NCBI GenBank assembly: GCA_977020255.1
Contig: CDROCS010000740.1
Span: forward strand, 496,001 to 560,000
Reading direction: 5' to 3'
Origin: Obrimoposthia wandeli
Taxonomy: Eukaryota
DNA length: 64,000 nt
The notes below the pieces were generated by a model. The model worked only from the letters and a program-made list of their open reading frames with translations, had not been told where the DNA came from and did not search any database. The position numbers and the translations under genes are program-made. Below, piece after piece: positions 1,290 to 59,439 of the stretch. How positions within the stretch are numbered: position 1 is the stretch's first letter; each line of letters begins with the position of its first letter.

Positions 1290-3495
1290 AGTAGGGAGAT
1301 GTGATGACTTCGACTCAAGGCAATAGGTCCCTCCCAGAGGAAAGATTCTCCCGAGTGCGTCAAGGTCATTCTTTTGTTTAAAAGCATCAATATTTGTGCG
1401 AGCCAAATTCTAATTTTCAAGGTCAAAATTTTCAAAATATTATTTTTGGCGTATTTTGAAATATTTTTGAAAAATGATTTTTGTTTAAATTTTCAAAATT
1501 TTCAAAAAACATAAAATTTCAAATAACTTGAAATTTTAAAAAACTCAAAATTTTTAGAAAACTCAATATTTTCAAATAACTTGAAATTTTCTAAAAACTC
1601 AAAAATTAAAAAAAAAATTTAAAAATTTAAAAAAAAATTTAAAAATTTAAAAAAAAATTTTAAAAACTTATTTAAATATTTATATTTTGTATTACTTTTA
1701 TTCACAAGTAACAAATATTTATAAAAATTGAATCTTGGTGTTTTATAATATTATCCAAAGGAAACTTATCCTCATTATAATCCTTCATCCTTCATCTCAT
1801 CAATGCGATCATTTATCGTAATCCTTCATATTGTCTTCATTATAATCCGATCTCTAATCTTCATTGTCGCAATCTCTCATCTTTCATCTCATCATCTTCA
1901 TTGTCACAATCCTTCATCCTTCATTAACATAATCCTTCATCCTCCATCGTAATCATACCTCCTCATCTTGTCTTCATCATAATATAGCATCTAATCTTCA
2001 TTATCCCTATCCTTCATCTTATCAATGTAATCCTTCACAAACTAGATGTTCATGTCATTTATGATATTTAGATGATTCTAAAAGAATAAGCATAAGTCTG
2101 TCTTAAAAGAAAATTATGAGATGTTCAAGTAATTAGTGATATTTTACGAGATGTTCAGGGAAATTTGCGATATTTATTAGATTTAATGAGATTTCAGAAG
2201 AGAAAATATATCCTGTAAAGGGTTCAGAGAGAGATTTGAAAAGTTTCAGAAGAAGAAATTAGTGGGTTTTTGAAGCAAATTTAAGCATAGATATTAACAC
2301 CTTAGAAGGATTTTAGAAGGGAAAATGACATAGAAGACAAATTGTTGGTTTAAAAGTGATGTTACCCAGAGGGTTCTGGAAGATAAATTTACAATATTTT
2401 GGTGGTTACGAAGCAATTTCAGGAAATGTATGATATTTAGAGGATATGGGAAACAGAAATTAACAAGGAAATTTGTGATATTTAGAAGATTTAATTAGAG
2501 TATTGGTTTTAGAAGAGAAAATATAGAAAGGGGAGAGGGAATTAACAGGGGGCGATGGTTTCAGAAGAAGAAATTAAACAGATAAAAGAGTTTTACAAGA
2601 TAATTTAGCGGTATGCTCAAGAGGTTTCAGAAGAGGGAATATATGCTTAAAATAGGTTTACAGGAGAATTTAATGGGGGTATTGGTTTCAGAAGAGAAAA
2701 TATAGAAAGGAGGGTCTCAGAGAGGGAATTAAAGGGGGAGTCCATGGGTTTCCGTAGATAATTTATAGTCTTAAAATGGGGTTCAGATGGGAATTTACCC
2801 AGATGGTTCTAGAAGAGGGAATTAGGGGTTTTAGAAGCAAATTTAAGCATAGATATTAACAATTTAGCAAGAGTTTAGAAGAGAAAATGATATAGAAGAA
2901 AAATACACGGTTCGGATGAGATATTACCTAGATGCTTCTAGAAGAGAAAATGATGATACGTAGGTGGTTAAGAAGTAAATTCAGGAAATGTATGATATTT
3001 AGAAGATATGGGTAATATAAATTTATAAGGTGTTCCGGAAATTTGTGATATTTAGGTTTATTTAAGCATTGATGAATAGCTAATTTTCTTCTACTTAATC
3101 CCCTCAACCACCACGAAATTATCATTTTCTTAATCCCCATATTATTCTTCCCTTCTTAGAAAAGAAATTATGTGTTATTTTATGATATTCTAAGATGCCA
3201 TTGCCCAAATACTTATCTTTATCGGTATTTTATCATAAAGATGGGATAAATGATTCGAATCAATAATTTCGCTGTAACTTGCTCTGACATAATTCCACTA
3301 TTAAGTCGCAGTAATTTAGGTAAAGATAATCAGAGTATGTTTCGGTTAGTATTAGCAAAAAAAGAGTCTACCTTTTATGGTAATTTTGAAATATCATTTC
3401 CACATACTTGATAAATGATTTATAGTATAACTCTGAAATTGATCCAAGACCGTTGAAGTATTAGTTATATCTAAATATTCTGTCTTTATTTGACA
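1290..3495 (+). mobile_element. Polinton/Maverick terminus (tip type A) with subterminal repeat region
   Basis: Starts AGTAGGGAGATGTGATGACTTCGACTCAAGGCAATAGGTC, near-identical to 18760. It is followed by A/T tracts, a TCA-rich block and a purine-rich degenerate repeat. 1670-2140 and 3075-3495 align by eye to 15225-15960 and 16665-17010. Confidence 0.65.
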
Positions 3496-4929
3496 TTAAT
3501 GATATATCTACAAAATTTACGATCAAGAAAAATCATCGTCAAGCACATGTTTGATCTTAGAGGTATATCTCATTAGAGAAGTTAACATTATTAAAATAAA
3601 GTTTATAAGGCATACGATTGATCAGGAGCTTCAGGCAGATTCAAGAAGTCGTAGCTAGCTGATTCACACGAAGGAGAAAAACGCGGCGAAATGAGTTATC
3701 TAGGAACCAGTATAAATTGCTTCATTGTTCCGACTTTGTGTAATGTGTAATGTATAAAATATAAACATGATTAGGAACGTGCGAATGTATTGCTAGGCAA
3801 ATAAGGGATTTTCTAAGCGAAGCTAGATAAACTCAACTGCGTCGCTTTTCAATTCATCGTATACCTTCGATGTAGGAAAACTGCATCATTTTAAATGGTA
3901 CTGTTAATCTTGAAGGATTGCGATCACTTACCGAACGAGTAGTTAAACATATAACAAATCTACACACACGAATTATTCAAAATTAACAAATAGTGACATA
4001 CAATTTAAAAATATAATACATTATGGAGCTGCAATTTATCGTTCGTAGATTGTTTTCCTTTCAATTGTAATAAAAAACATGTCCACCAAAAATTTCAATG
4101 TATTATTTTTACTGTGATGCGATGTAGCTCAATACAAAATTTTAATTAAACGCAAAATTTGCATGCTTTACTTCTTACTTCGTTTATCATTAAACCCAAG
4201 TGGATAAGTCTTCATTGTACTCTTTGATACTTCATTTGTTACCTTTTGTTGTCTGGATTCATCAACTTTGGAGGGTTTTGAGTTGCTTTCAGAGTTCGGA
4301 GCGGATTCCTCCTTAATAGGATCTTTGTCTATCATTCAATAAATATTTAATAGATTTACACATCAATAATAAACAATACATACAATTATAATAATAAATA
4401 GTTAAAATCCTGAAACAAAATTCATTAATTGACACAAGAATAAATACTATAATTCAAAATTATTTTCAGTGGATTGTACAATTTGTAACTGAAGTAATAC
4501 CTTTTTTTAATGTAAACAATATGCTTGAATAACTGATGATATTTTATATTTTTAAAAATTCTAAATATTTAAAGTAAAATATCTATGAAAACAGAAACAA
4601 AACATTTAAAATGTGAACGATCTTTTGTAAAAATTAGCAAAAAATATATTACTTTTAATTTGAGTCAGACGATTTCAAGTTACCACAAATAGATTATGTG
4701 GGTGGTTTATATGTCATTCATAACTAAACCAACTTGTAATTACACAGCTTGTTTATTGTAACCAGAAGAGTAATAAGCAATGAAACGACTCTCAAAACTG
4801 TTTTTGGACATACTTTTAAGTTTATTTAAATAAATAGTGACTTATTTAATAATATAAAACATACAAATTAAATATTTAAAAGGACGTTAATATCTAATAA
4901 ATATATGACTTTTTTCTCAAAAGTACTTC

Positions 4930-5042
4930 CTGTTTTCCACAATTCTTCGTAATATTTTCTGAATAGTAAAAGTCTTTAGTTGCTTTTTGAAAACTTCAGC
5001 ATTTTTGCAGTTTCTTATATCCTTCGGTAAATTGTTGTCAAG
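4930..5042 (-). mobile_element. Non-LTR (LINE) ORF2 3' end fragment
   Basis: Minus strand reads DNNLPKDIRNCKNAEVFKKQLK, the usual N.LP..IR....FK..LK end of LINE RT. A related copy lies on + at about 42780. Confidence 0.55.
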
Positions 5043-5339
5043 GTTCAGAGGAGAAATTTAAAATAACCATTATTATGTTTATTATTTAACAATTTAAATG
5101 AGATTTGGCCGCTCTTCCATACTATTCAAGAAATATGCGTTTGACCGAATTATATAATTGTATATGAGCTCAAATGTGCTACATATTCTTTATGAATGAA
5201 AATTAAAACTTTTAACACTATATTCTCATTTATTCTAATAGGATCACCAGGTTTCCATTTATGACTTGATATAGGTGGTATAATTTCTGTATTAAATTCA
5301 TAATTACTGGTTTTCGTGTATTAGCTTCTGTTGATATAC

Positions 5340-5605
5340 AAAGCAGCTATAAGAGAAATATCTGTTCTCACGCATAAATCATCAGAACATTCCTGTGTGA
5401 AATCAAGAAACAAATAAACATGGGGCATGGATATTGATACAAATCAATGAAATATGTTCTATTAAATATTTTCTAGCTTGTCATGCAACAACATCAATAA
5501 CGGCCTGATCTCTTGAATTCATGAATAAAATGGTAATGAACGATAAAATTTTCAGTTCGATTTTATCCACCTTATTTTTTACGTAATGATACTGGTCTAA
5601 CCCAT
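5340..5605 (-). pseudogene. Polinton-type packaging ATPase (FtsK/A32-like), C-terminal remnant
   Basis: Minus strand ITILFMNSRDQAVIDVVA*Q, then a frameshift, then PHVYLFLDFTQECSDDLCVRTDI. These match the Polinton ATPase motifs LFKNPRD..QI..LARQ and P+.YL++DL.Q......RT.I. Confidence 0.6.
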
Positions 5606-5789
5606 TGATCCCTAAAATCTTCATTTATAACATCCATATAAGAATATCGAACTCATCTAATCCTATTAATGTCAACATTTCGCCATACATAATGCGTAAT
5701 ATATTTAGTAGTAATAACAAAACGTTTACATAAATCAATATTATGTGTATACCAAAAGTAAAATATCTGACAAGATAAGCATAAATTGA

Positions 5790-6165
5790 AGGATCATAGT
5801 CAAAATCAGGTAATCCAAGAATAACGACTTTGTCACTTCTAAATACATTGACATATTGAGGATTGTACTTGAGACATCTAACTGCTGGAAATATTTCTGG
5901 ATCAAGCATATAATTGGTACTTGTAATAACTCGACGAGAATGACTGTTTTATTCAGGTCTGAAGATACTGTGACTGATTGAATACAATAAACGGATATTC
6001 TAAATGGATACTCTATAAGTTCAGAACATAGTGGTGACTTGCAACCCCTTATCCTGCAATTTCTTAATGGATTTTAAATAAACAAATTAAATAGTAATCA
6101 CCTGATCTGAAAATAACAAGTGTATAAACTTTACACTTGTAAACTTGTTGGTATGGTATACCACG
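5790..6165 (-). pseudogene. TATA-binding-protein (TBP)-like gene remnant
   Basis: Across frameshifts the minus strand gives KVYTLVIFRSG, IQSVTVSSDLNKTV and DPEIFPAVRCLKYNPQYVNVFRSDKVVILG. These resemble the two TBP repeats (LIF.SGK; QN+V.S.D; YEPELFPGL...LIF.SGK+V+TG). No introns are evident. Confidence 0.6.
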
Positions 6166-7229
6166 TTTAAAAGATAAGTTTAACTAACATTTTTTATTTG
6201 ATATGAGGAGATCATTAGCCACCCAAGAGGAAGAACACATGCATATACGCATACATGTACATACTATTAGGATTCAGCCAATCAGAGACAAACAAAAATA
6301 TGTATGTACTTGACACTTTCAGTTGATAGTTTATAATTATAAAGATGTCGTTTGAAACACATACACTATTTTACGATAAATAAGAAGGCATCAACTATGA
6401 ATTCTGTGAACCCATTATGTATTAAAGTTTGCAGACGAATTACCTGAAGATGTCAATCACTTATGAATTCATTTGGTCAACACTAATCAAGACCAAATTT
6501 GACAACAAAATCTCTTAGTTAAAACAAACTGATGTTAATAGTATGAATAAAATATTCAACAAGATGAATAGCTTCGTCTTAATCGACAATAATATCTAAA
6601 TTCGAGGAGGTGCTGTTATATTTGAGGAATATCACGATTTCACGATATACAAGTTTGATACAGGATAGAGATGAATTTAAATATTATAACTCAAGCATTC
6701 TAGATTAACAAAGCAGCAGTACAGTTTTTTTGATAATTAAATTTAGTTTACAGTTTATGGTTGCTTTTAAATATAAACAAAAGCGTAAATATTTCATCGA
6801 TAATCCTAGACAGTTTAACTCACACAAAGTCATAGCTATATATATATAAACTAGCCAAATTACACAATTTTTCAAACAAAAATAACTTTTTTTTACTTGT
6901 GAGACGAAATAGAAACATTTTTGAAAACCATTTTTGAGTTGTATTAAGAAGAAAATTTGGAAAAATTAAAAAGCAAAACATTTTAATAGAAATAAATGGG
7001 ATAAAAATAAATGGGATAAAAAATTTTAGTTAAAAAATCTTGAAATCCAGTTTCTCCAGAGTACATGTCTCGAAATTTGGTTTCTACCTAGTATACGATG
7101 AGCATTAATCATACATTAGTAAAGTGTTCTCTTCAGCAATTGACTCAACACTCTCGAACCTTGGCTCCTTGAACCACTTTCTAAGTGAGCGTTTTAGCTG
7201 ACAAGAAGACAAAGTCCAAATATTGACCT

Positions 7230-10738: not shown

Positions 10739-11323
10739 TTAATCAAATTGATTGGCTAGAAGAATTGGCAACCCCTTCATCAGTCCAGGAGACGGCGCTT
10801 CTAGTGGGCGGCTGTACTCTCTGATGAGCTTCACCAGCCGGAAGAGATATGGGTCAAGAGATTCAGCTCCCTGGTGAATGACAACTTCAGTCAGCATAAA
10901 ATCAGCAATATTCGAGACATACTCCGAGTTGGAACCACAGAATCCCCTGGCTCTGGCGATTTGGCAGGCCTGGATGATCACCGAAGTATTCATCAAACTC
11001 AACTAAAAACTTGTCAACTGCAAGCAATTAGCTTTGGATTTGAAACAAAATATCACCATTACCTGCTTTTCCAGTGACGCCTTCCCGATGAATTGTTTGC
11101 TTGCACAGTCAGCAACGTAGACACACATCTGCACCGGAGCCATGTCCGGCGACTCCGGATAGAATATCGTCTTGTCAAAATGATATCCTCCTGTGACCAT
11201 TTCCCGTTCCACCAGATGTTTCAAGGCCGCCGCAATCTCCGATTCATCGTTCACTGCGTATGCTGTACCCCAGACACGCTCCTCCGAATCGTCGCTTTTC
11301 AGAATCGTCGCAACTCGACCTGG
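10739..11323 (-). CDS. CHAC1: ChaC-family glutathione-specific gamma-glutamylcyclotransferase, last two exons (11323-11063, 10969-10739)
   Basis: Exon A (87 codons, after a TTTTGTAG acceptor) reads PGRVATILKSDDSEERVWGTAYAV..EREMVTGGYHFDKTIFYP..IGKASLEKQ. A 93-nt GT..AG intron (11062-10970) follows. Exon B reads ACQIARARGFCGSNSEYVSNIADFM..DPYLFRLVKLIR..*. The PGRV, VWG.AY, RE..GGY and G.N.EY motifs are ChaC hallmarks. The N-terminal exon was not found; CHAC1 versus CHAC2 is tentative. Confidence 0.9.
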
Positions 11324-11339
11324 CTACAAAACAACAGAG

Positions 11340-12572
11340 CGTCATCTTTTCCAGCCGGGATTCAGCCGGGATTCAGCCGGGATTCAAATAAAATATTATT
11401 TCACTAAGAAATAATTCTCCGATGGAACTGAAATTTGACATGCAATTTGTGATCGATGTCTGGCTACCGTTTCCAAAGTTTCATTCAAAAATATATATTC
11501 CTTCCGGAGATATTCTCCCGCAACCCAGGTTCTACCAGCATTTATACATTTCTGAAACTAAATATCGAAATTTCAATTTCCGGCTCGCGCAACCACCGAA
11601 CACAAACCGCTGAAATTTGGCAAGCAATTTTTGTATAGTGTTCAGGATACTCTAGTCTATGTTTCTGGAATATTTCAATACGGGAAATATTATTTGGCCA
11701 AAGTTTTATCAATGGGGCTTTAAAATGGTCAAAATATGGTACTACAAAGTCCATTTTCGGTGTTTTTTTATTCCAATGGAGCAACATGGATGGCAGTATC
11801 GTGTTCCTGATCATCGATTTAGTATATAAGGAATATAAAAATATGTGATGAAATATATTTGTGGGATCTCGGGAATGAGTTACTCAAAATGTTTATGAAG
11901 TGACAAATTCACCAAACGTTGGACTCAAATTTTCAAATAGACATTTTCAAAATCTTATATTTGGAGATATCCTGTACTTAAGGTATACGGGCTCCCCTCT
12001 AGCGATTGGTGAAGACCGTTTTGTCGGGGCACTCTTGGTTAAGCCTACAGAAGTATCCCAGGTAGGTCAGAAACGGTAACAGGACAATTACCCGCCGGAC
12101 ATTTACCCGCCGGACAATTACCCCCCGGACATTTACCCGCCGGATAATTACCCGCCGGACAATTACCCCCGGACATTTACCCGCCGGACAATTACCTGCC
12201 GGACAATTACCCGACTAGGACAAATACCCGCCGGACAAATACCCCCCGGACAATTACCCGACTAGGACAATTACCCGCCGGACAAATACCCCAAATTGCT
12301 TGCCAAATTTCAGCGGTTTGTGTTCGGTGGTTGTGCGAGCCGGAAATTGAAATTTCGATATTTAGTTTCAGAAATGTATAAATGCTGGTAGAACCTGGGT
12401 TGCAGGAGAATATGTCCGGAAGGAATAAATATTTTTGAATGAAACTTTGGAAACGGTGGCCAGACATCGATCACAAATTGCTTGCCAAATTTCAGTTCAA
12501 TCAGAATTTTATTACTCAGTGAAAAAATGTTTTTGTTGAATCCCGGCTGAATCCCGGCTGGAAAAGATGACG
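11340..12572. mobile_element. Element with about 290-bp inverted repeats (11340-11631 and 12293-12572), MULE/foldback-like
   Basis: The arms are reverse complements (CGTCATCTTTTCCAGCCGGGATTCAGCCGG... and ...CCGGCTGAATCCCGGCTGGAAAAGATGACG). The interior has a short minus-strand coding-like scrap (11632-11815) and a 15-bp array. No TSD is recognisable, so the superfamily is uncertain. Confidence 0.6.
12082..12292 (+). repeat. 15-bp tandem array (GGACAATTACCCGCC, about 14 copies)
   Basis: Direct reading. Variants include GGACATTTACCCGCC, GGACAAATACCCCCC and GGACAATTACCCGACTA. Confidence 0.95.
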
Positions 12573-13090: not shown

Positions 13091-13449
13091 TAAAATTGCT
13101 CGTCAAGATTGGTAAATGTAGAGGAAAAAGAAAACGTAATAAGAGGATGAGAAAGGAAAAGTATACGTAATCGCAAATGTGAGTAGAGGATTGAACATAG
13201 CTGAAAGATGATACTCTGTTTTCGAAAAAGAATATGAGTAGCTAGATGTACTAGATGTAGATTATACAATATCTTCCAGGGATAAAAAGTGTCCATTTGC
13301 AACTGATCGATTTTTCTCAACCAACTTGCATTTATCATCGCTACTGCTTATTGTAATTTTACTTAACCTTGCATTAAAAATTTGATGATTTGACAAGCTT
13401 ATACTTTGTTACTGTACACGCTCGCTAACGCCACTTTCATAGACGTCTA

Positions 13450-14445
13450 AGTAATTAGAATGTTTTATACTTGTCTGTGGTAGACTAATACCTGTAGCTT
13501 TCATCTGAGATTCACCTCTGTAGTCTTTAAGCTATATGATTTTGAACGTATAAAAATCCCTTGCATATAGCTAAATAATCCCTTGCTCTCATATTTAAAT
13601 TTTCCAATTGCTGTATTAAGTGTTGTATAAAGCGAATAGGTTTTGGAAATTTCGAGGTATCCAATAGTCCATCCGCGATCATAGCAGGTAACAATGTTTC
13701 TTGAACATTTACATTATTACACTTCAAGAAAAATCTATCAATGTCACCTGCTATAATTCTAATGTTTTTAATGTTTTTTTTTCTAAAGTTAAATTGAGCT
13801 CGATATTTCTTTAACTGCATATATTGTAGCTCATACATACGAAGTTTATATAATTATAATACTGCCTGGCCTATATAACTAGGACGATCCAAAATAATAT
13901 CTTCCTTATCCAGTAGAACTGCGATAATGACCGTATCGATTTCGATTGTCTTATAAAAGTGGGCTTTACTACAACAGGTTACCAGCTTTTGTGGAGTATT
14001 ACAAATCAGAAGGCTAATTATTTTCATTAGATTCTCAATGAGTTTTCCAAATAAAGAATTCATCTTCAATTTGTAATAATCTCGTTCGAAATCTGTTGTA
14101 GCTGCAGCTCTTTTAAGAGAATTGTCCTCAATATATTTTGAAAAAACATTAGTTTGTTCAAACTGTATTGCTCTGTATACAAAATCTACCTTAGCATCAA
14201 GTCTAACGTACATTTGTAGCAATCTAGAATGCACAACATAATGTTTCTTAGGGTAATGTGTTAGTAATAATTTTTCAGTCTTACACCCTGGTGGACACTG
14301 TTTAATTGGAGCAAGGGCAACATCGTCGAATTTATTATGTAGCTCATTGGGAATGGATTTTAAGCTGGAAATAATATTCCCCAACTCTAACCGATCAGTT
14401 ACCCAGGAAATGTTACCACAAGGTAAAAACTGGGATATTTGGATA
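13450..14445 (-). pseudogene. Protein-primed DNA polymerase B fragment (Polinton), copy 2
   Basis: ORFs 13854-14597 and 13527-13838 give SQFLPCG..KLLLTHYPKKHYVVHSRLLQ..YYKLKMNSLFGK..PSYIGQAVL..IIAGDIDRFF (degenerate YxDTDS). It is paralogous to 20302-21073 and fused directly to an inverted terminus at 14449. Confidence 0.9.
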
Positions 14446-14462
14446 TTGCCGAGTGTGTGTTG

Positions 14463-15092
14463 GTTGCCATGGAAACACGCATAGCAACTGAGTGTATATT
14501 GGTTGCCATGACAAGCACCATGTTTCCATGGCAACGGCCATCTACTCGGGATAAATTTTTCTTCGGGGAGGGTAAATGTCTTTATTCTGAAAGACACACA
14601 TCCCCTACTTATTACTGAACCAATATTAGTAGGAGGAACTAATACTGTTTTCCCACAAAATAAGACAAATATCCCCCTTTCAAATGTTTACTATACGCAT
14701 TGATTATACTTGAATCAATCATAATTTACGAAAAGGAACTGTTAAATTTGTTTAAGCTCCGTAAGCAAATGTAATAAATCTTCCAGAATCATTGCTTGTA
14801 TTAACTTCAATATTGTTTATAGAAGAAGAACTCACAGGAATATATATTGGATTTTCAATACCCATACTTGTGCTTTTCATGTTGAACCCGAATTGATTTT
14901 ATTAATGGAAGTTTAGTTCCTCCTACGAATATTGGTTCAGTAATAAGTAGGGGGATGCGTGTCTTTCAGAACAAAGACATTTACCCGCGAAGAAAAAATT
15001 ATCCCGAGTGGAAGGCCGTTGCCATGGAAACTTGGTGCTGGTCATAGCAACCAATACACTCACTATGTTGCCACGTGTGTTGCCATGGCAAC
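14463..15092. promoter_or_regulatory. Cluster of RFX X-box motifs inside the Polinton termini
   Basis: GTTGCCATGGAAAC (14463, 15018), GTTTCCATGGCAAC (14522), a perfect GTTGCCATGGCAAC (15079), and half or variant sites at 14480, 14502, 15041 and 15067. This is a motif match only; function is not shown. Confidence 0.5.
14645..14945 (-). pseudogene. Polinton penton C-terminus plus start of the core-protein gene (fragment)
   Basis: Aligns by eye to 26290-26600 (ATTATACTTGAATCAATCATA..AATCTTCCAGAATCAT..TTAACTTCAAT..ATTTTATTAATGGAAGTTTA..GGTTCAGTAATA). Minus strand ends KGGYLSYFVGKQY, paralleling QGGNLPYFTGKQY. Confidence 0.85.
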
Positions 15093-18000
15093 CAACACAC
15101 ACTCGGTTGTCATGTGCGTTTCCATGTCAAACAATTCTCCCGAATACGTCAAAGTCATTCCAAGGTCATTCTTTTGTTTAAATGAGTCAAAATTTCAAAA
15201 ATTCTTCAAAATGAGAACTTAAAAACTTTAAAATATTGATATTTGTATTACTTTTATTTACAAGTAACAAATATTTATCAAAATTTAATCTAAGTGTTTT
15301 ATAATATTATCCAAAGGAAACTTATCCTCATTATAATCCTTCATCTCACCAATGCAATACTTTATCGTAATCCTTCAAATTGTCATAATCGAGCATCTAA
15401 TCTTCATTGTCGCAATCTCTCATCATTCATCATCATCTTCAATATAAAATTCCTCATCCTTCGTCTCATCATTTTCATTATCGCAATTCTTCATCCTTCA
15501 TCTCTGTATCTTCATTATCGCAATCCCTCATCCTTCATCTCTCCATCTCATCAATGTAATTCTTCATCGCAATCATTCATCATGTCTTCATCATAATTCA
15601 GCATCTAATCTTCATTATCGCTATCCTTCATCTTATCAATGTAATCCTTTACCGTAATCCTTCATATTGTCTTCATCATAATCCGGCATCTAATCTCTCA
15701 TCCTCATCTCATCATCCTTCATCTCATCATCGTCATTATCGCAATCCCTCATCCTTCATCTCTCCATCTCATCGATGTAATTCTTCGTCGCAATCATTCA
15801 TCATGTCTTCATCATAATTCAGCATCTAATCTTCAGTATCGCTATCCTTCATCTTATCAATGTAATACTTCACAAACTAGATGTTCATGTCATTTATGAT
15901 ATTTAGAGGATTCTAAAAGAATAAGCATAAGTCGGTCTTAGAAGAAAATTATGAGATGTTCAGGAAATTAATAATTTTTTATGAGGAATATTACTAGTAT
16001 ATTATGTATTGATTCATATTGAAATGGATTCATATGTATTCAGAGGAGAAATTAACGATATGTTTATAGAAGAGAATTCCCTGACATGTGATATTTACTG
16101 ATATTAAGATGGTTTAGAGGAAATATTAACGATTATTAAAAGACTTTTTGAGGAAATTAATATGTATGTATGATGTTTATCATATTTGCTGAATTAGTAT
16201 AAGGAGAAAATGCAAAGTATATGGGGTTTATGATATTAGGTAGTTTGGCAGACAAATTAACTAGATGTTCATGTAATTTATGATATTTAGCTGATTCTAA
16301 AATAATAAGCATAAAACCATCTTAGAAGACATTTTTGAGGTATTCAGAAATTTATGATATTTTAAAGATTTAACAGGGTGTTGATTTCAGAAGAGGGAAT
16401 TAGTGGGTTTTAGAAGTAAATTTAAACATAGATATTAACAATTTAGCAAGAGTTTAGAAGGGAAAATGACATAGAAGATAAATTATCGGCTCAGAGGAGA
16501 TATTATCTAGATGCTTCTAGAAGACAAATTTATGATATTTAGATGGTTAAGTATTATTTCAGGAAATTATTTAAGATATATAGGAAAGGAAATTAACAAG
16601 GTGTTCAAGAAATTTGGATATGTAGATGATTTAGAAGATAATTTAGGTTTAAGCATAGATGATTAGTTAATTTTCTTTTACTTAATCTCTCAACTACCAC
16701 GAAATTATCATCTTCTTAACCTTTATACTATTATTCTCTTCTTAGAGAAGAAATTATGCGTTATTTAGTGATTTTGTTATATTCTAACATGGCATTACCC
16801 AAATACCTATCTTTATTGATATTTCTATCATAAAGATGGAATACATGATTTGAATCAATAATGTAGCTGTAACTCACTCTAAAAACTTCCACTATTAAGT
16901 CACAGTAATTTAGGTAAAAATAATAAGTAAAAATAATAAGTAAAAGATAATCGATTTAAAGCATCAGTTTGAAGTATCAGTTATATCTAAATATTCTGTC
17001 ATTATTTGATAATTTGATAATTTATATATATAATGTCTACTAAATAAGTAGTCTCTGAAATTGATGAGTTAGAAGTATTACGAATTATAGGAAAACAACT
17101 AATATGGTCCTAAAGTGATTTATTAATATACTTATATCAATATAGGAGAGAAAATTATGATATTAAGCTGCTTCTAGAAGATATATTAATGATATGTTCA
17201 GAACATTTATGATATTTAATCTGCCTCAAATGGTTTATTGATAAATTTATATCAATATATTTAGGAAATTAATGATATTTAGATGATTCTAAAGGCGAAA
17301 TTATCGATATATTCGATATATTCGGAAATTTATGATATTTAATCCAGTCCAAAGCGATTTATTGATAGCCTTATATCTATATATTCAGGAAATAATTGAT
17401 TTTTCCAGGAAATTTACAATATTTAGATGCTTCTAGAGGAGAAATGTATGATATCTTCGGGAATTCAATGACATTTAAGTGGTGAGATAAGAGAAATTAA
17501 TGATATGCTCAGGAAATCTACAATTAATGATATTCTCAGCACATTTATGTTATCTAATCAGTCACAAATAGGATTATAACAATATATTCAGGAAATCAAT
17601 GATATTTATGTGTTTCTGAAGATAAAATCAATGATATATTTGGAAAATTAATGATATCCTCAGGAAATTTATGTTATCTAACCCACCCCAAATGGTTTAT
17701 TGATAGGATTATATCAATATATTCAGGAAATCTATGATATTTGGGTACTTCTAAAGAAGAAATTATATGATATTTAGTGATATTTGCGAGCATGGCTTGG
17801 AATTTTTCAATTGATTGGAGAAATTTACGGATCAGCATACATTTATGGAGTGTGTATTTGATTCAGTTTAGTAGTCTTAATGTAAATTTAGTCCATATGA
17901 AGATATCAGTGACTGTTCTCCAATCAATAACTTCCAGCAAAATGTGTTCAATATGGTGGAGAAAGTATGAGTCTCTTAGATTGATTTATTGGATGTACCT

Positions 18001-19904: not shown

Positions 19905-22900
19905 TCAAACAAATTTTACATTATCCGGATAGAGATAGTGTCCATATACGACTGATCGGTTCTATTCCACCCATTTCCGTTTATTATCGGAACTACTTAA
20001 GGAAATTATAGTCACCTTTACTGTATACAATTGATGATTAAATGAGCTTATGCGGCTCTGCTGCACACGCTCACTTACTCCGCTTTCGTACACAGCAAGG
20101 AAATTACTATGTTTTAAGTTAGTTTGCCTCAAGCTAATACCCTTCGCTCTCATATGCGAATCTTCAGCCGTAGTCAACATACTATAACATTAAGGATTTT
20201 AAAATATGCACACTTTATAAGTACATATCCCTTTACTCTAATCCTTAAATTTTCCTATTTCCGTATTCGCAGTCAAATAGAGTGGGTGAGTTATAGGATA
20301 TTTAGAGGTATTCAAATAATCCATCTGATATCATAGCAGGCAATAAGTCAGCTTGAACATTTACGTTTCTACATTTCAGAAAGAAGCTGTCCGTATCACC
20401 CGCAACGATTCTAATGGAACAGTTAAATTGTACTCTGCACTTCTCTAACTGAGTGTATTGGAGCTCGTACATCCTTAACTTACTCAAATCTAATACCGTC
20501 TGCCCTGTGTAACTTGGTCTATCCAAACAAATCATATCCTTGTTGAGTAAAACTGCAACAAGGTCATTATCTATTTCTATAAACTTACGAAATTGAGCCT
20601 TACTGTATTACAGATTCTTAGGTTAATTCTCTTTTTCAAATTTTCTATCAATTTTCCAAAAAGAGAATTAACCTTTAACTTATAAAAATCTTTCTCAAAA
20701 TCATTTGTTGCCATAGCCCTCTTTTCAGAATTTGATTTAATATACAGCTCAAAGACATTAGTTTGTTCAAACTTGACTGCACGAGTCTAAGATACATCTG
20801 AAGCAGACGAGAATTGACAAGATAGTGTCTTTTTACCCAATGAGTCAAAAGTAGTTTAACTGTTTTGCTACCAGGTGGGCAATCCTTTTTAGAAGCTAAA
20901 GGTAGATCATCTAAATAATTATGTAAATTATCGGGAATACACAAGTCGACTTCAACTAAATGTGCATGTTGGCTACAGCTTAAATCCTTATATGAAAGTT
21001 CTGATATTAAGTCCCCTAATTCTACCCGATCAATCACCCATGAAAACTTTCCTACTGGTAGAAATTGGGACATGGCCCAGCCATATAAATTATTAACATC
21101 AATGTATAATAATGTGTCACCGTTGTGGATACCCGATGCTCATTGACGAAGGTCATCGCGCCTCGAATTCCCCCATGAAACATCTGATGCATTTCCGGAT
21201 CCTGGATGAGTTCCACTGTAGGTCATGCCAGAATAGCAGGGCTTGTAGTGGTTGCCTCGGTGCCCAGTAATAATTTGAAAGCGCTCATGAACGTCAATCC
21301 TAAATTAATTAAATTTATTAAATTTCAAAAATTACAGAAAATATACAAAAAGTATATTTATTAAATTGAGTATTTTTTAAATATTACAAAAAAATTACCA
21401 ACAGTATATTTAAACAAACCAGGTATCGAGAAGAAGTTCAGAGGCTCCAGTCCGTCGTCTGAGATAGCCCAATACCGGAAAGCCGTGAAGAAGTCAGCGA
21501 GCAGGTATACGTCGATTTTCAGGTAAACCAACATATAGTCCCAGATTGAAGCGCAATGGAGATTCTTTGCATGCTCGTACTGGTCGTTGCTGATGTCATC
21601 GTTCCATTTCGCGGGGATGCTTGTGATTTCCCGTAGAGCAGTCTCGGATACCGCTAGATCGTATGGGAAGATTACTTTTCCCGTGACGAGATGAGGTGGG
21701 AATACTGAATTTGTTAGCGGAACATTTCCTAGATTTCCGACGAGTTTCTCGAGACTGATATCCAGAAACTGAAGTGAGACGATAAATCGAATACACACTC
21801 CATCAATGTGTGCGAGCATCGCCTGGAATTTTTCAGTTGATTGTAGAATCACTGAAATACTCCAATGAGAAAACTTATTCAGCGCATGCTTGAGAATGTG
21901 ATGGAGATCGTACTCTCTCAGGTTATAGAAAACTACTGGGATAGCATGATTCAGTCTTCAAATTACAATTGGAATGGGCAGCTCCAAGAAATTCTCCGGT
22001 CATGTGATCATCATCCCGGACCTTATTTACACAGCGCTTATTACACAGGTAACATTTTGTGGCCGCTACGTAACTCGCTACCTGTTCCGGTGTGAGTGGC
22101 TTCATAACTTCCATTGCATGCTGTCTGTACCAAGGCAGCACCACAGTCTTCACCAAGTCCTCCAGTTTCTTCAGAAAGTCAACTAAACAGTTTTCTCCAG
22201 TATAGACTGAATAGTCATGGGTGTATCCAGTCGCGGAACCAGGAGACATCAACATACCGGCCGCTATCGTGAGATGAATCTGACGATGAATGCCGTAAGG
22301 AGCAAGAAACGACTCGAAATCCCCATATACGACGAAGGGCGAAGAGATTGTTTTCATGAAATCCTTAAATGCAATCACTGATTCCGCAGGCATGGTGAAT
22401 AACGTGATCCGATCAAAATTCATGCGACAGAGAGGAATATGCTTTTCGTAGCTGAGCGCTCTCCGGAACCCGTGCAGGTACTTATGACACCAAGTGCACT
22501 GAATTCGCGTACCTACTCCTCTATTACGAAAATTCAGTAATTTATTAAGTTTCAGTTCCGGAGTGTAGTGAAAAGATTCATTATCCTCAATAAGAAGGAT
22601 ATTCACCGGATTCTTATCAGGATTACAAGTCCAATATATCACGTCGATAAACGGATTCTTGAAAATCTCCTGATTATTAGGCAATAATCCAAACCTTTTA
22701 TATGAAAAAACATTGATTGAAAGAGATGGATTTTCTCTCTCAAATCTCGGAATAACCGCGAGTCGCATTGGCATATCCTCATCCTCGTATTTTAAATTAC
22801 CTAAAATTCATTATATTGGGCTGTCCGATACCTATGTCCCGGAATAATATGATATTTCAAAAGAGCTAAAATGCTGTAAATTAAATAAAGTACACCAGAA

Positions 22901-23400
22901 TTTGGATATTGATGATGCACCTTGATGCCTTCAACACGTCACATGTTGGAATAAATGCGCTCCCCTGCAGTCGATTGCTTATTGTAGTTCGGGTTACTAT
23001 GAAATAAATTTCAAGTACCCTCTTCATAATCCAATTACTGGCATTTTGAGAGTACTTCTCAATTTTCGCATTGAGAGACTATATTCCCCTATCAATTAAT
23101 ACAGGAGTGAATGTAGTGGCCTTGTTTGAAACATTCTATTGTTTCACATCACTCTCATTCTTGAACTCCATCTTGATACCGAATTGCACTTTACAAGTAA
23201 CAAATTCTTCAACTATTACTCTTAAAGATTCGATAAAGTGCTGCGGCACTTTTAATTCAATAACATTAGCGCTAGTCTAATCTAACGATAATGTCACATA
23301 GGACCCTCTATTAACCCGTAACCTCGAACTCTTAGCCGCAGATGCACCACTAGTTGATGGCATCGCGCTTAACATACTTGACGGGGGCATAATCCGTTTT
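19905..23400 (-). pseudogene. Protein-primed DNA polymerase B, near full length, multiple frameshifts
   Basis: N-terminal SNWIMKRV..GSAFIP..CIINIQ; YGDFESF; endonuclease VII-like CYLC..VRDDDHMTGEFLGAAHSNCNL; LKIDVYLLAD; GGIRG; YIDVNNLYGWAMS; VAGDTDSFF; RAKGI..LSSSDNKR..YGHY. Confidence 0.95.
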
Positions 23401-23435
23401 CGAGGAGCAGCTACTACAGTAGCTTAAACATGAGC

Positions 23436-23684
23436 TTAAATTGGATCAGCAGCGACTACTGGAGCAGCTACCACAGGAGCTTGAACTGGAGGTACTGATC
23501 TGTAGCTCATGCTGTTCTGTGGAGAATTCCGGAATATCGCTAATTTTCCACGAGTTTGAAAGTATCCAAGATGATCTCGGTGCTCATTCACAAACGTCGT
23601 CCAACCGATGTCCTGAACTGATTCGCATTGCGGACAGACATAATATGTCTTCAGGTTGAAAATTTTCTGGAAATAGGTCTTCAT
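23436..23684 (-). CDS. Small Polinton ORF of unknown function (CPQC motif)
   Basis: 82-aa ORF co-oriented with the block, between the accessory gene and pPolB. No family recognised. Confidence 0.4.
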   Translation of the reverse strand: MKTYFQKIFNLKTYYVCPQCESVQDIGWTTFVNEHRDHLGYFQTRGKLAIFRNSPQNSMSYRSVPPVQAPVVAAPVVAADPI

Positions 23685-23957
23685 TTGTATTCCACACTCG
23701 TGATGTTGATCATTGAAGCACAGATTCTTGTTTATATAGTACTAAAAATAAATATAAAATTTTTAAATAAAACTTTCTTCAGATTCATTCTGTACTTTAT
23801 ACTAATCTAAAGTAATTTGTTGGCCAATAATAATATTTTAATTTTATGATGACGTAATTTTCTACCGTATACCCACTTGAGCTTGTATTACATCATTTGA
23901 ACCCTTATTGTAATTTAACGAACAAGTTATCTGAACCTTAATTAATATTCAAATAAT

Positions 23958-24338
23958 CTATACATGCAGAAAACATTTTTTATAGGCACAATGATAACCA
24001 TGATCAGTATATGGGCATTTAAAATTAAATGGAATAGGTGAAAGACTCTTCAACGTTTTAGAGTAATTAACGATTCTAAAATTAGGGAAATATTTTTGAA
24101 TAGTTTTTATTTTGAGACCATTATATTCATCCAAGACATAGAAAATTGAATTGGATGACTCAAATGATTTATTGATTTCCATTGGATTAAAGAAACTATT
24201 TCCATCACATAAATTCAATTTATGATAATGATTTATTAAATATCTGTTTATTTTTAATGATTTATAATTTTTCTTATCCCATACTGGTTGTATTTTGAAA
24301 ACATAATGTTTGGGATAGAAGATCGCATTCACAATCAT
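23958..24338 (-). CDS. Conserved Polinton accessory protein (exonuclease-like, C-terminal C..H..C motif)
   Basis: HYVFKIQPVW..NRYLINHYHKLNLCDGN..IFYV..KCPYTDHGYHCAYKK resembles a recurrent Maverick ORF (HY+F.PP..N.WL..YHGL.W..G..C..H..CA). Assignment is from memory of the pattern. Confidence 0.55.
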   Translation of the reverse strand: MIVNAIFYPKHYVFKIQPVWDKKNYKSLKINRYLINHYHKLNLCDGNSFFNPMEINKSFESSNSIFYVLDEYNGLKIKTIQKYFPNFRIVNYSKTLKSLSPIPFNFKCPYTDHGYHCAYKKCFLHV

Positions 24339-24429
24339 TATAAAAATTCCTTTATTACAAATTCAGTATTATTATCAATAAATTCTTAAAAATCAATAAA
24401 ATAAACAGACATATTCGATTAATTATTTA

Positions 24430-24745
24430 TTATTTAAAATTGTTTATGCTTGCCAGCCACAGTAAACAGATTTGTCCGCAAGGGCGTGTTAAAGCGCTTT
24501 GATAATGTATTTTATTGAAATGTACTTTCTTATTTGAATCAAGTACTGTAGAGTATAAAACATATATTGCAATTAAATGTTCTCCAGGCAGATTAGATGA
24601 ATGCGTATTGATTACATATCCTCCTGAGTGAATCAATGATGGAATACGATCAAAACTGAAGACTCCATTGACACGCGAACCGAGTCATTTTCTTCTGCTA
24701 TTTGATATTTCGTCAGAACTAAAATTATATATATTAATTAATACA
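24430..24745 (-). pseudogene. Adenain-like cysteine protease (Polinton maturation protease), internally deleted
   Basis: VNGVFSFDRIP..YVINTHSSNLPGEHLIAIY..VLDS..YQSALTRPCGQICL. The His, Asp and Gln/Cys motifs are present, but the spacing is short and there is an upstream stop. Confidence 0.88.
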
Positions 24746-24793
24746 ATAAAAGAGGCTTACTTCATTTTTAATTTAGTTTGAATAATTTTATGT

Positions 24794-26013
24794 TTATACA
24801 AGTACAGTTCCCCACTTAGTGATTTGAATTTCGGAATCAAATACTCCATAGATTATGATATTAGTTGGATTTTTAAGATCTTTTGTAAACTTGATTTCTA
24901 CTTTCAAATTTCCCTGCTTAGGAATTTGAGATTGAGTAATATCGAAATACGGAAAAAGAACAAATGTGAATAGTGTATACTTGTCTTTGAAATATTTCAA
25001 TGAAATACCGACATTAGAATCCTTATCCATATAACCAAGATTTCTAATTAGAGAATACACATAAGAAAACACATAATCATCGTTTTCAAAGTCATTGTAG
25101 TATGTTTCCTGATAATCAATATTACGTTCAAGTTTTATTGAGTTCACATGCATATGACCAAATTGAGAAACCTACCTTTTAGAGCTTCCTCCATAGGTCG
25201 ATGTGTTCTGGAAAGCAATAAAAACAAAGTTCGGGAGCTGCATATCACCGAAAATCTGGTCCTTGTAATATGAAAGCGCTCCAGTGGGAATTGCATGAGA
25301 AACAAGATTAGTTTTTCTTATGGGATAACATGCATTTTGCTTCTCAAGCCCCATTTGATGAGCGATAAGTACTGACGGTTCAACCTTTACTCTACGAACC
25401 ATCAACTTAGCTTCTGAAATCTCAATTACAGGAGTAATTGATTCGGCGCAAACAATACTGAAACCTACCGGGTTTCTCTTCATTCTAATATGGACATTTA
25501 TTCCAGGCAAAAGATACTTTGGCTGCTTAAAGAAATCCAAATGAAGACTTCCCCATAGTGATAATACCTTAGACTTTTCAATCCAAGCTTTTCTGTTTTC
25601 TTCGTCATCATCAAATCCAGCATCAAGATTAATCAATTTCGTATCATTTCCATAATTCAATAATGTTTCAATCATTGTTTTATGCGTATAACTAGTATTA
25701 TTTCCTTCGACCTTTACATTATTGAAACTGAGAATCACATCCTTAAATAACGTATGAAATTGGCCGCTTTGATTTCCAAATCATTATCTAGTTTAGCACC
25801 TCCTTGATTTGTAACCTTCAATTTCACAAGAAGTAGACTATCATTTAAATCAATATATTGAGAATTCGATCCATTTATATTGAATTTCAAATCCGGAGAA
25901 GAAGTTCCACTAACTGTATTTGTTGGGAATTTTTCCTCAAAACTAGCACAAACAACTACTACTTGAGGCAGTGGTTTGTCAAAAAAACACAATTCGGTTT
26001 AAGCACAACTCAT
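24794..26013 (-). pseudogene. Polinton major capsid protein (double jelly-roll, PY/hexon-like), frameshifted into three ORFs
   Basis: MSCA*TELCFFDKP..FNINGSNSQYIDLNDSLLLVKLKV, then IETLLNYG..LHLDFFKQPKYLLPGINVHIRM..EAKLMVRRVKV..YPIR, then YTLFTF..QGNLKVEIKF..IIIYGVFDSEIQI. The start overlaps the upstream stop (ATGA). Confidence 0.93.
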
Positions 26014-26323
26014 TTCGTGAAAATTGTACCTTTTAAACGCTTGTTTTTAGCTTTTGTTTTAGTGATTTTCTTACGTTTATATCCACTTCCTTTTTGTTTT
26101 CTCAACATTTTTCCAAGACTCGGAGAAATTTCATCTACTTCTTGCAGAGCCGAGTTTTTAGTGTGGGAAGATTTTTTTCGTCTCCAGATAAGTAATTTGA
26201 TCCAACTTTAGCAATAAATTTTCAAAGTCGTTGGAGTAGAGGGAAAGCAAAGCAACACAAAAATTTCATCCATCCTGATCCATACTGTTTTCCAGTAAAA
26301 TAAGGTAAATTACCTCCTTGCAT
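26010..26323 (-). pseudogene. Small basic core-like protein with QxGG/QxGxG motifs (missed by the ORF track)
   Basis: MQGGNLPYFTGKQYGSGWMKFL..FAFPLLQRL*KFIAKVGSNYL, a frameshift, then LRKQKGSGYKRKKITKTKAKNKRLKGTIFTK*. It sits between penton and MCP as in other Polintons. Confidence 0.75.
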
Positions 26324-26358
26324 TGGTTTACTTTATGTATTAATTATACTTGAATCAA

Positions 26359-27290
26359 TCATATTTTTCTAAAATGTATTGTTAAATTTGTTTTAGCTAC
26401 AAATGAAAATTTAAACAATCTTCCAGAATCATCCCGAATATTAACTTCAATGTTGTTTATAAAGCTTGAGCTTACTGGAATACAAATTGGATTATCAATT
26501 GGAATATGTATAATATCTCCATACTTGTTCTTTTTCTGTTGAACCCAAATAGATTTTATTAATGGAAGTTTATTTCCACCCACAAATATCGGTTCAGTAA
26601 TACTTGTGTAAATATAAATCTGATTATATGCATTACTTAACTTGGCCCGATTAGATGCTCGGAAAACCTTATAAAGTTTTTTAAAACTGTTTTCATTGAA
26701 TCCAATAATTGTAGCTAAATTTTTATACATATTTATTTCTTTTATATGTGGTTTCAATTTAAACTCAATTATCTCCTTTTTAACATAAAAGCTTTCAAAT
26801 ATATTATCAATAATTTTTATGAAATATTGACAAAGACTTTCAACATTGGAAAATAAGCAATCATTTTCGAATGCATACTGCTCATGTACATCCTCTTGTT
26901 TATAATGATGCATCTTTATCTTTAAAGTCGGTAAATCATATATTTGATTTGGTAATTTCGATTCATTAAACATACTTTCAATAGCAGCTTCTTTCATACC
27001 GTAACTTAATGCTAAACGTTTATTATCAATTTCTAAATTGAAAGCTTGTCCTTTAGTGTGAGTTATACGTATTTTGTCTTCGTCGCTATGGTAAATAACA
27101 TATTTACTATTAATTGGAGTTATATACTTGACGAAATATTCTCCATGTTTCATTTTCAAACCAGCTTCAACTTCAGTTTTTATTGTTTTCTCCGCAACGT
27201 AATCTATCATTGAACCCCTTTTAATGGATTTTTTTTCCAAGTTGAAATAATTAAAGATAGTTCAATCGATTACCCATCATTGATTTCAGT
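26359..27290 (-). pseudogene. Polinton minor capsid protein (penton, PX-like), N-terminus damaged
   Basis: C-terminus IYIYTSITEPIFVGGNKLPLIKSI..GDIIHIPIDNPICIPVSSSFINNIEVNIRDDSG..LTIHFRK is the characteristic penton ending. Confidence 0.9.
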
Positions 27291-57500: not shown

Positions 57501-59439
57501 TGATTATCTTAAGACAAAATGCCAAAGTGCATATTTTCAAAATAGAACTTTTCCCTAATTAAGGAAAGTTCTTAATTAATTCTTTAGTTAATTAATTCTT
57601 TTTTACTTTTTATTTTTTTAAACATTTTTATATTTTTTCAAAATAAATAGTTATAATATTTTCCCAACAAAAATATCATATAATATTATATCATATTATT
57701 ATTAATTATGGAAGTTATGAAAGTATTGGAAATGTTATGGTGATAAAAATAAAGTTTTTAAAAATTTCTATGTTAATTGATTTATGGAAGATTTAATTTA
57801 TGTTTTGATGAAATGTTTTGTCTCAATGTCTTATGAAAATAATGATACAATGCGATTTATGAATTTGTCATGTGATGAGATGAAGAATAAAGTTATGATT
57901 GGTGTTATTATGTTTTATTCTACCACGTCTTCAAAGGATTTATTTGTGGCTTATGTTTTGGAGACGTTAATGAGGAGAAATAAAAGTTTATATCTTATGA
58001 ATTCTATGTTTTATGGTACGACTCCCTCCCTAAAGTTCAGAATAAAGTTCAATATAAAAAAGGTGTCTTAATAATTTAATAAGTATTTTGTGATGGTGGA
58101 TGGGGTTGCAGTAGAAAAAAACACTTATACATTACTTTAAATAATTCATAAAGTCATATATATAGTGATTTAGTGGCAGAGGCATGGAATGGTCGGTACA
58201 TGTGCGGATAAATTGATAAATTTCAGGAGCTAAATGGTAAGCCAAGAATAGTAGGGATCAGATCAAAATCGCTCTTGATGGAATTCAAGTTTCATATAGG
58301 CTTAATCTTCGAATTTAATTTATCCACCTTAACTACTGTACTATCTATTGCCAGTAAACTGCACTTATGCAGTTGAAAAGTGTATATATGTCTCAGGACA
58401 TGTATAGATTTTTATACACACACATTCACGAAATTTCACTCCAAACACACATGAACAGTTTTAAAGGACATTGGTACCCCCAGGGAGGATGGTGTGGATT
58501 AGACCGAACATATCCACCTACTTATACCATTCAGTTGTTGAAAATATCGGTTATTATTCTCAATTCATCAGGACATGAAGGTGTAAATCAAGAAAAAAGT
58601 AACCATGAGAAATTTTAGTTGCATCTTGAAATGAATTTATCAAATATTGTCTGTTAAAGAGAAATGCTTGACATGAAATATGTTTAATAACCGTTTGATA
58701 ACGAGGATTCTTAAACAAAACCAAGTAATGTACGTTTAAATTACGTGTTCTATGTTTACCACCTTGATGAAATAGGTCTTGAGTAATGAAAACTACAGTA
58801 ATACAGTTGTGTCTTGCTATTTTTGTGAATAAATTATTAAAGTTTTACTTTTTATTTTCTTCTTCGTATAAGTCATCAATTACTATAACATCATTACGTT
58901 TAAACTGTTTTAAACAATTTTGATAGAAACCATTGATAATTTTTTGTTCTTAAGTTTACATAATTCACTTTTTGTTAACCCAGATTCGCAAGTATCATCA
59001 TTATGTCAATAAATATTATTAAATCGACAATTGAACATTTTATTGTTTTTTAATAATTTCGTTACAAAATGTGTTTTTCCACTACCACCGGATCCTACTA
59101 TGTAATATACTATATCATTTTTAAGTTTCATAATAAATAAAAATAAATGAGAAAAAAGATTGTTTAAAAGCATTTTATTAATATATACAACAATATTTAA
59201 TTAAAAATTGAAACATAAAACGTTATATACATCATGTTTGTACAATTAAGCTGAACCTCTTTTTTTAAATTCATTTTCCATTTAAGATCTCTATGGACAT
59301 GTGAGTGAACAATTTCTCTAAGATGATTACAAGAAACTTCATTAAACGAGAAAATTATTGAACTAATTTTTTTGTTTCATTTAAAATTTCCTCGACCGAA
59401 TCATCGATTAATTTATCAATTTTACCCATTTACCATGGA

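Follow-up and report, generated by a model that had tools for sequence, protein, structure and literature searches.

Viral TBP-like factors are already known from herpesviruses, poxviruses, and other large viruses, and the Polinton-borne family described here is a further variant. PMC12529657 describes the late-gene TBP mimics of beta- and gammaherpesviruses as having the TBP fold, a polar DNA face, and a variant TATA element before structural genes (TATTWAA for KSHV ORF24) and as using host Pol II; ORF24 keeps all four of the phenylalanines, lacks the acidic TFIIB residues, and acts within a six-protein viral complex. The poxvirus factors VITF-3/VETF also use a viral TBP fold for staged transcription and serve a virus-encoded RNA polymerase, according to PMC12917281. 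The elements of interest here resemble described Polintons/Mavericks (adintoviruses) in having pPolB, an rve integrase, an A32-like ATPase, an adenovirus-like protease, TIRs, a 6-bp duplication, and ORFs that are putatively of capsid type, and differ from them in a TBP gene and a common YATAAACA box. IAP cargo is known in adintoviruses from PMC8502044 (Starrett et al. 2021; preprint 10.1101/697771), where the legend of Fig. 5, in the section on non-animal datasets, also applies the label "TBP", unanalysed there, to MELD viruses with adintovirus-like PolB. The word is absent from the text of the supplement to that paper, and the label may or may not denote the family considered here. Among openly readable papers, searches that combined names for these elements with TBP or TATA terms returned nothing on this family or its motif beyond that legend.

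The stretch analysed (hereafter the window) is 64,000 nucleotides of contig CDROCS010000740.1 from Obrimoposthia wandeli. Within it lies a Polinton/Maverick fragment that has undergone deletion and frameshifts and in which the TBP-like gene, here termed mini-TBP, is dead; this copy is unable to carry out the transcription role proposed below and is a fossil of its family. The peptides from which a TBP-like reading frame had been recognized in the preliminary description (TLVIFRSG and others) are all encoded on the minus strand and are spread over three frames. That reading frame is real, since an uninterrupted relative from the same genome aligned with positions 6156-6100, 6058-5927, and 5903-5772 in three frames with E=5e-17 (the best of 30 shuffles gave E=0.11) and a profile of 55 relatives matched two window fragments with hhalign probabilities of 98.3 and 97.3; the window fragment alone scored 11.9 bits against the Pfam TBP family (PF00352), below the cut-off of 22.9. 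The exon 1 remnant (6102-6190, minus strand) was placed by a tblastn match at 6180-6100 and by reading it side by side with sibling loci L197, L199, and L201, in comparison to which approximately 70 nt upstream, including the start codon, and about the first 14 codons are gone, with the junction near 6191 (size counted by eye). A 38-nt insertion (6064-6101, minus strand) follows at the predicted site of a phase-1 intron; it starts with GT, and its acceptor end is degenerate in this copy. The exon 2 remnant (5740-6063, minus strand), defined by tblastn, hhalign, and the alignment to the relative, covers the last part of repeat 1 together with repeat 2; its frame changes near 5925-5905 and probably again near 5790.

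Beyond the mini-TBP remnant, at 5573-5721 on the minus strand, lies the N-terminal remnant of an IAP (BIR-RING) gene, which matched by tblastn a sibling ORF with a BIR match (E=7e-13) and the IAP of family D (E=0.002), and whose relatives have BIR and RING matches. At about 5573, approximately 1.37 kb (∼1,366 bp in comparison to sibling L198) has been deleted, with loss of the rest of the IAP gene and the start of the ATPase gene. The C-terminal remnant of an A32-like packaging ATPase occupies 5325-5573 (minus strand; tblastn 5531-5357, E=2e-11) with one stop and one frame change, and its intact relatives score above the Pox_A32 cut-off. The ATPase C-terminus reported next to the TBP-like gene is thus present. 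Its placement directly downstream of that gene holds in part: the two are adjacent and co-oriented, but by way of the deletion and with the IAP remnant between them. At the sibling loci, an IAP remnant followed the TBP gene in 8 of 10 (one of the 8 being the source of the query), and the ATPase followed the IAP in two; because siblings have this remnant between the genes and ∼1,366 bp is missing relative to L198, we attribute the adjacency in the window to deletion. Other families do have the TBP and ATPase genes close to each other. The peptide KWKPGDPIRI, previously likened to the tail of an integrase, belongs to the N-terminal remnant (5238-5300, minus strand) of a small basic ORF that follows the ATPase; the same peptide opens that ORF in L177, L178, L198, and family A and does not occur in the C-terminal 95 residues of four integrases, and the integrase assignment was accordingly rejected. 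On the other side of mini-TBP, a divergent and decayed gene at 6351-6700 (plus strand; tblastn E=2e-12 to 2e-16) is predicted to encode a single-stranded-DNA-binding protein (SSB) of the T7 gp2.5/Enc34 type. Read from the right, the order is therefore the SSB-like gene (plus strand), the TBP-like gene, the IAP N-terminus, the deletion, the ATPase end, and the start of the next small ORF. The ATPase end is the sole Polinton core gene in this remnant, and TIRs and a 6-bp duplication were not found for the window copy. In a DNA search of the 1.35-Gb genome, 40 of 458 candidates (a number of search candidates, not of copies) were scored and yielded 45 matches, and the other copies were mostly 71-78% identical. 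A repeat of approximately 250 bp at 4847-5096, 76-80% identical to many copies, abuts the Polinton remnant.

The preliminary description had also placed a Polinton terminal region nearby. The feature in question, at 1290-3506 on the plus strand, is a younger high-copy repeat with a sharp AGTAGG end. The same end is common to this repeat and to young TBP-bearing elements, which makes "Polinton terminus" plausible in kind. As a terminus of the TBP-bearing remnant it is unproven: its copies are 88-90% identical versus 71-78% for the TBP region, it had no match in the TIRs of the fetched TBP-bearing elements, with matches in 39 stretches confined to flanking DNA, and it was met, partially, in two of 10 sibling loci. 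The repeat is non-coding, recurs in the window at 15227-16609 and 18760, contains internal repeats of 37-100 nt, and is found elsewhere in the genome in fold-back or 3.85-kb tandem arrangements; it is possibly a non-autonomous Polinton derivative. Further Polinton pieces are present in the window. A second, longer Polinton remnant (19935-26950, minus strand) has pPolB, a zinc-finger-like ORF, "exo", protease, and capsid-type genes in the order of family D, a pPolB end with a minor-capsid-type piece lies at 13286-14944 (minus strand), and a separate ATPase fragment lies at 58534-59140 (minus strand). The reading frames at 10739-11323 (minus strand), in two pieces, presumably resemble a ChaC-type gamma-glutamylcyclotransferase, and at 11363-12560 inverted arms of 268 nt flank a 15-nt tandem array in what is likely a MITE.

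Intact relatives of the gene were found inside Polintons. Among metagenome and viral loci, a Polinton core gene (pPolB, ATPase, integrase, capsid, or protease) stood beside the TBP gene in 35 of 75, and in 25 of the 32 loci of at least 3 kb; six of the 75 carried canonical-type TBPs without Polinton core genes, and the viral contigs yielded one TBP locus, also of canonical type and without Polinton genes. In O. wandeli itself, uninterrupted copies lie within complete Polintons. The young family F (copies 96-99% identical) has the TBP gene between pPolB and ATPase in all six fetched copies, each bounded by inverted repeats at a spacing of ∼11-12 kb, and one of them shows a readable target duplication of 6 bp; the examined copy of family A has 576-bp TIRs 12.75 kb apart. 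DNA_pol_B_2, rve, and Pox_A32 were over their cut-offs in the relatives, Peptidase_C5 was under its cut-off at E=0.002, and the capsid-type ORFs were conserved in size and place without a Pfam match. The polymerase-like ORF of family A (L082:428-2731, minus strand) is shortened to 768 aa and has no Pfam match, though the family is very abundant; family A may be non-autonomous or catalytically altered. In family D (L094:9308-9745, L213), a dual-specificity phosphatase gene and an IAP gene flank the TBP gene. The SSB assignment comes from the model of an uninterrupted relative (pLDDT 93), for which the top structural matches were 4klk, 5odk, and 1je5 (Z 8.1-8.5, rmsd 2.5-2.8, 101-105 residues aligned); a protein search with one SSB-like ORF returned nothing, and Pfam gave nothing convincing on its 15 relatives. 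There are one or two copies of the T7-type SSB gene per element (L102-L132, L069, L213), apparently spliced in several metagenome loci.

In a protein search of the genome, at least 150 of 26,087 candidates (again not a copy number) matched, 150 being the most that were scored. PF00352 was above its cut-off in 150 of 150 scored, the top ten of which were host-type TBP genes. Besides the host genes there were at least 140 further PF00352 matches over the cut-off, and those examined stood in Polinton gene order. The host has several TBP-family genes, among them a divergent pair 1.2 kb apart (L051/L052, G000:C238:870559-875236), and two intronless divergent host TBP-family copies with further matches on C968 (L053/L056, L054, L055). 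In a tree of 144 rows, 121 of them without genomic context (quick search, SH-aLRT, unrooted), a branch with support of 99 parted 12 Polinton-linked rows from three host and eight canonical rows. This separation indicates that mini-TBP was not acquired recently from this host. The central claim of the preliminary description, that a TBP-like gene belongs to a Polinton lineage, was thereby borne out in both linkage and phylogeny, given TIR-bounded elements with pPolB, integrase, ATPase, and protease whose TBPs stand apart from those of the host.

The gene had been described as intronless, and this description does not hold at 6101-6064, where the window has its 38-nt insertion and sister families have a putative GT-AG intron. 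Family A has an insertion of 35-42 nt at one codon position in 28 of 28 copies, beginning with GT in all and ending with AG in 27; both exons are open and both splice sites present in 26 of the 28, and unspliced read-through was seen in 0 of 28. The insertion occurs at the same position in the family of the window copy and in two others, and is absent from family B and young family F. One of 64 scored metagenome loci (L147) has an insertion of the intron type. Fourteen of the best 150 library matches start at the Met just past the intron site, which fits gene calls made on exon 2 alone. The host TBP introns seen were 47-48 nt long and at other positions (counted by eye). No joint fell at the intron among 15 of 41 joints listed, which came from four runs of unknown kind on one sample and are uninformative on splicing. 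Judged by its sequence, the 35-42-nt GT-AG insertion is probably a spliced intron.

The predicted model of the uninterrupted 144-aa relative is a two-repeat TBP saddle (pLDDT 95.4). When this model was compared with 48,161 chains, the top five matches were all TBPs (Z 11.3-13.7, rmsd 2.5-2.9 over 143-144 residues), with the next match at Z 6.4, and the best match in a PDB profile search had E=1e-22. Against PF00352 the same protein scored 64.6 bits, above the cut-off, for one repeat only. There were 62 relatives at E≤1e-5, most of 144-165 aa and all with PF00352, and 65 clusters at 50% identity at E≤1e-30. Structural matches to NCLDV TBPs in BFVD reached E=2e-8, most viral matches being much longer proteins. 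The protein is like the cellular and archaeal TBPs (PF00352; 5fur_A, 7o4i_O, 1mp9_B) over the whole predicted saddle, with an rmsd of 2.5-2.6, and in its C-terminal stirrup and equivalents of F116, F190, F207, and N69. It is unlike them in its length (∼145 aa), its shortened H1 and stirrup 1, the absence of H2, an identity of 24-27%, the loss of the residues corresponding to F99 and N159, its polar DNA face, and its carriage in many copies by a mobile element. The TBP part of the earlier term "TBP-like transcription factor" is supported by the predicted fold, and the transcription-factor part is a likely reading of the fold, the residues, and the promoter-like motif described below.

Among 55 relatives, three of the four intercalating phenylalanines were kept (F116 55/55, F190 55/55, F207 54/55), as was N69 (54/55), and the acidic C-terminal stirrup was retained at L189 (49/55), E188 (55/55), and the residue that we take to be E186 in yeast numbering (52/55). 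The F99 column had no Phe in 55 of 55 and Gln in 47, in a stirrup 1 whose alignment is uncertain. The equivalent of N159 was Ser in 53 of 55, and one of the two base-reading asparagines is thus gone; with the F99 equivalent also lost, DNA bending may be impaired. The remainder of the DNA face is polar and likewise conserved, each altered position having gone to one nearly fixed residue: V71 to Asn (55/55), V122 to Arg (54/55), T124 to Met (55/55), I194 to Arg (53/55), V203 to Cys (52/55), and L205 to Asn (55/55). Relative to host TBP, most of H1 and stirrup 1 is missing and helix H2 falls in an alignment gap; in the model, the segment from residue 50 to residue 61 is free of helix, though part of H2 persists in longer proteins of the wider family. 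In cellular TBP the basic helix H2 of repeat 1 is the surface for TFIIA, Brf1, TAF1, and Mot1. The residue numbers used above are those of yeast, from Table 1 of PMC12529657 and from PMC1636458, and the latter reports that I194F, V203T, and L205V alter specificity in yeast TBPm3. The acidic C-terminal stirrup of TBP serves TFIIB according to PMC10005294. The herpesvirus-type preinitiation complex has several viral activators, loss of the TFIIB residues, and an extra DNA-binding domain; the Polinton protein is a stand-alone domain of ∼145 aa that has kept the TFIIB residues, and no viral partner activators were identified for it. For 10 of 12 genes tried, dN/dS had a median of 0.18 and a maximum of 0.45 in the 27 unsaturated pairs of 45 (the other 18 were saturated); mini-TBP is under purifying selection.

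Upstream regions were analysed in 69 metagenome loci and 14 own-genome stretches, with the Polinton ORF labels MCP, mCP, PW, and "exo" being our presumed identities and start codons picked by script, which is unreliable for spliced genes. In the interval 10-60 nt upstream of the start, the motif ATAAACR was present in 21 of 23 ATPase, 10 of 12 MCP, 7 of 10 post-ATPase ORF, and 8 of 11 "exo" representatives, for which the shuffle maxima were 2-4. The TBP genes had ATAAACR in 1 of 48 cases and TATAWAWR in 23 of 48 (shuffle maximum 8). Over 58 sites the pattern was YATAAACA, mostly 31-41 nt before the ATG. The division between gene classes is not clean: in 80-nt windows, ATAAAC was also seen upstream of integrase (10 of 22) and SSB (7 of 23) starts, and it preceded just 2 of 11 "PW" starts. 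PMC1636458 states that the C-proximal part of TBP touches the 5' half of the box and the N-proximal part the 3' half; the N-terminal repeat, which is the most altered here, would thus contact the half in which the motif departs from TATAWAWR. A control with TBP-less Polintons was sought in viral contigs, where three scans that used ATPase and capsid sequences as queries met no relative, and in own-genome searches by PF04665 and PF03175, in which the examined elements were all TBP-bearing; with no TBP-less Polinton found, the motif may be general to Polintons.

Taken together, we think it fairly probable that mini-TBP (∼145 residues) acts as the late-gene promoter factor of its element. In this scheme its gene would be expressed early, with host TBP starting transcription at an ordinary TATA box and the transcript being spliced in some families. 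The polar DNA face of the protein would then bind YATAAACA at a distance of approximately 35 nt upstream of the genes for the ATPase and the capsid and of their neighbours, and its retained C-terminal stirrup would bring in host TFIIB and Pol II to start these late genes; lacking helix H2, it would escape host regulators. This reading is weakened by the occurrence of the motif before some integrase and SSB starts, by the several sites that fall within upstream coding sequence, by the loss of the F99 and N159 counterparts, and by the rarity of the intron in the metagenome loci. Such use of host Pol II would be shared with the herpesvirus mimics, and the staged scheme as a whole with the poxvirus factors; a virus-encoded RNA polymerase like that served by the latter was not seen in the 11-13 kb Polintons.

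It is unlikely, in our estimate, that mini-TBP is instead a decoy or host shut-off factor that damps host transcription by binding TFIIB or DNA, with the ATAAAC boxes being read by host TBP or another factor. The TFIIB stirrup is indeed the best-kept surface, helix H2 and the counterparts of F99 and N159 have been lost, and the gene sits among host-modulating genes (IAP, dual-specificity phosphatase). Cellular TBP could also serve as a weak but possible reader and might suffice, since TATAAACG had 27% activity in the plant promoter test of PMC10005294 (Table 4). A pure decoy would not, however, need the new DNA-face residues that are invariant or nearly so in the 55 relatives, and the motif is kept across lineages whose TBPs are distant in the tree. 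Less likely again is a role in replication or packaging, in which the protein would bind DNA at sites such as the terminal repeats and the motif would be the 3'-end signal of the upstream gene or unrelated to it. The frequent location of the TBP gene next to the SSB and pPolB genes would suit this role, and the motif is AATAAA-like and lies at gene junctions, but ATAAAC follows a T or C at 57 of the 58 sites and never an A, most sites fall 31-41 nt before the next start, several overlap the coding sequence of the upstream gene, and none precedes TBP genes downstream of a co-oriented SSB gene. A host TBP/TRF paralogue or pseudogene lying by chance beside Polinton debris, which the putative spliceosomal-type intron and the several host TBP-family genes might have suggested, can be set aside as refuted by the locus linkage (including the further PF00352 matches in Polinton order), the six of six young copies in Polinton context, the well-supported separation in the tree, and an intron position different from those seen in host TBP genes.

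Mini-TBP as a candidate late-gene factor, together with its candidate binding site, makes it possible to test directly how Polintons time their capsid genes and whether integrated copies still pass through a viral cycle. As a natural experiment on TBP, the protein drops H2 and one intercalating Phe and changes three yeast specificity positions; if the proposed role is true, it would represent an altered-specificity TBP that arose in nature and is smaller than the cellular core. Whether one re-specified minimal TBP runs two-stage transcription throughout a widespread Polinton lineage, by means of a private YATAAACA box and host TFIIB, we judge to be an even question; if it does, integrated Polintons would have a virus-like late phase.
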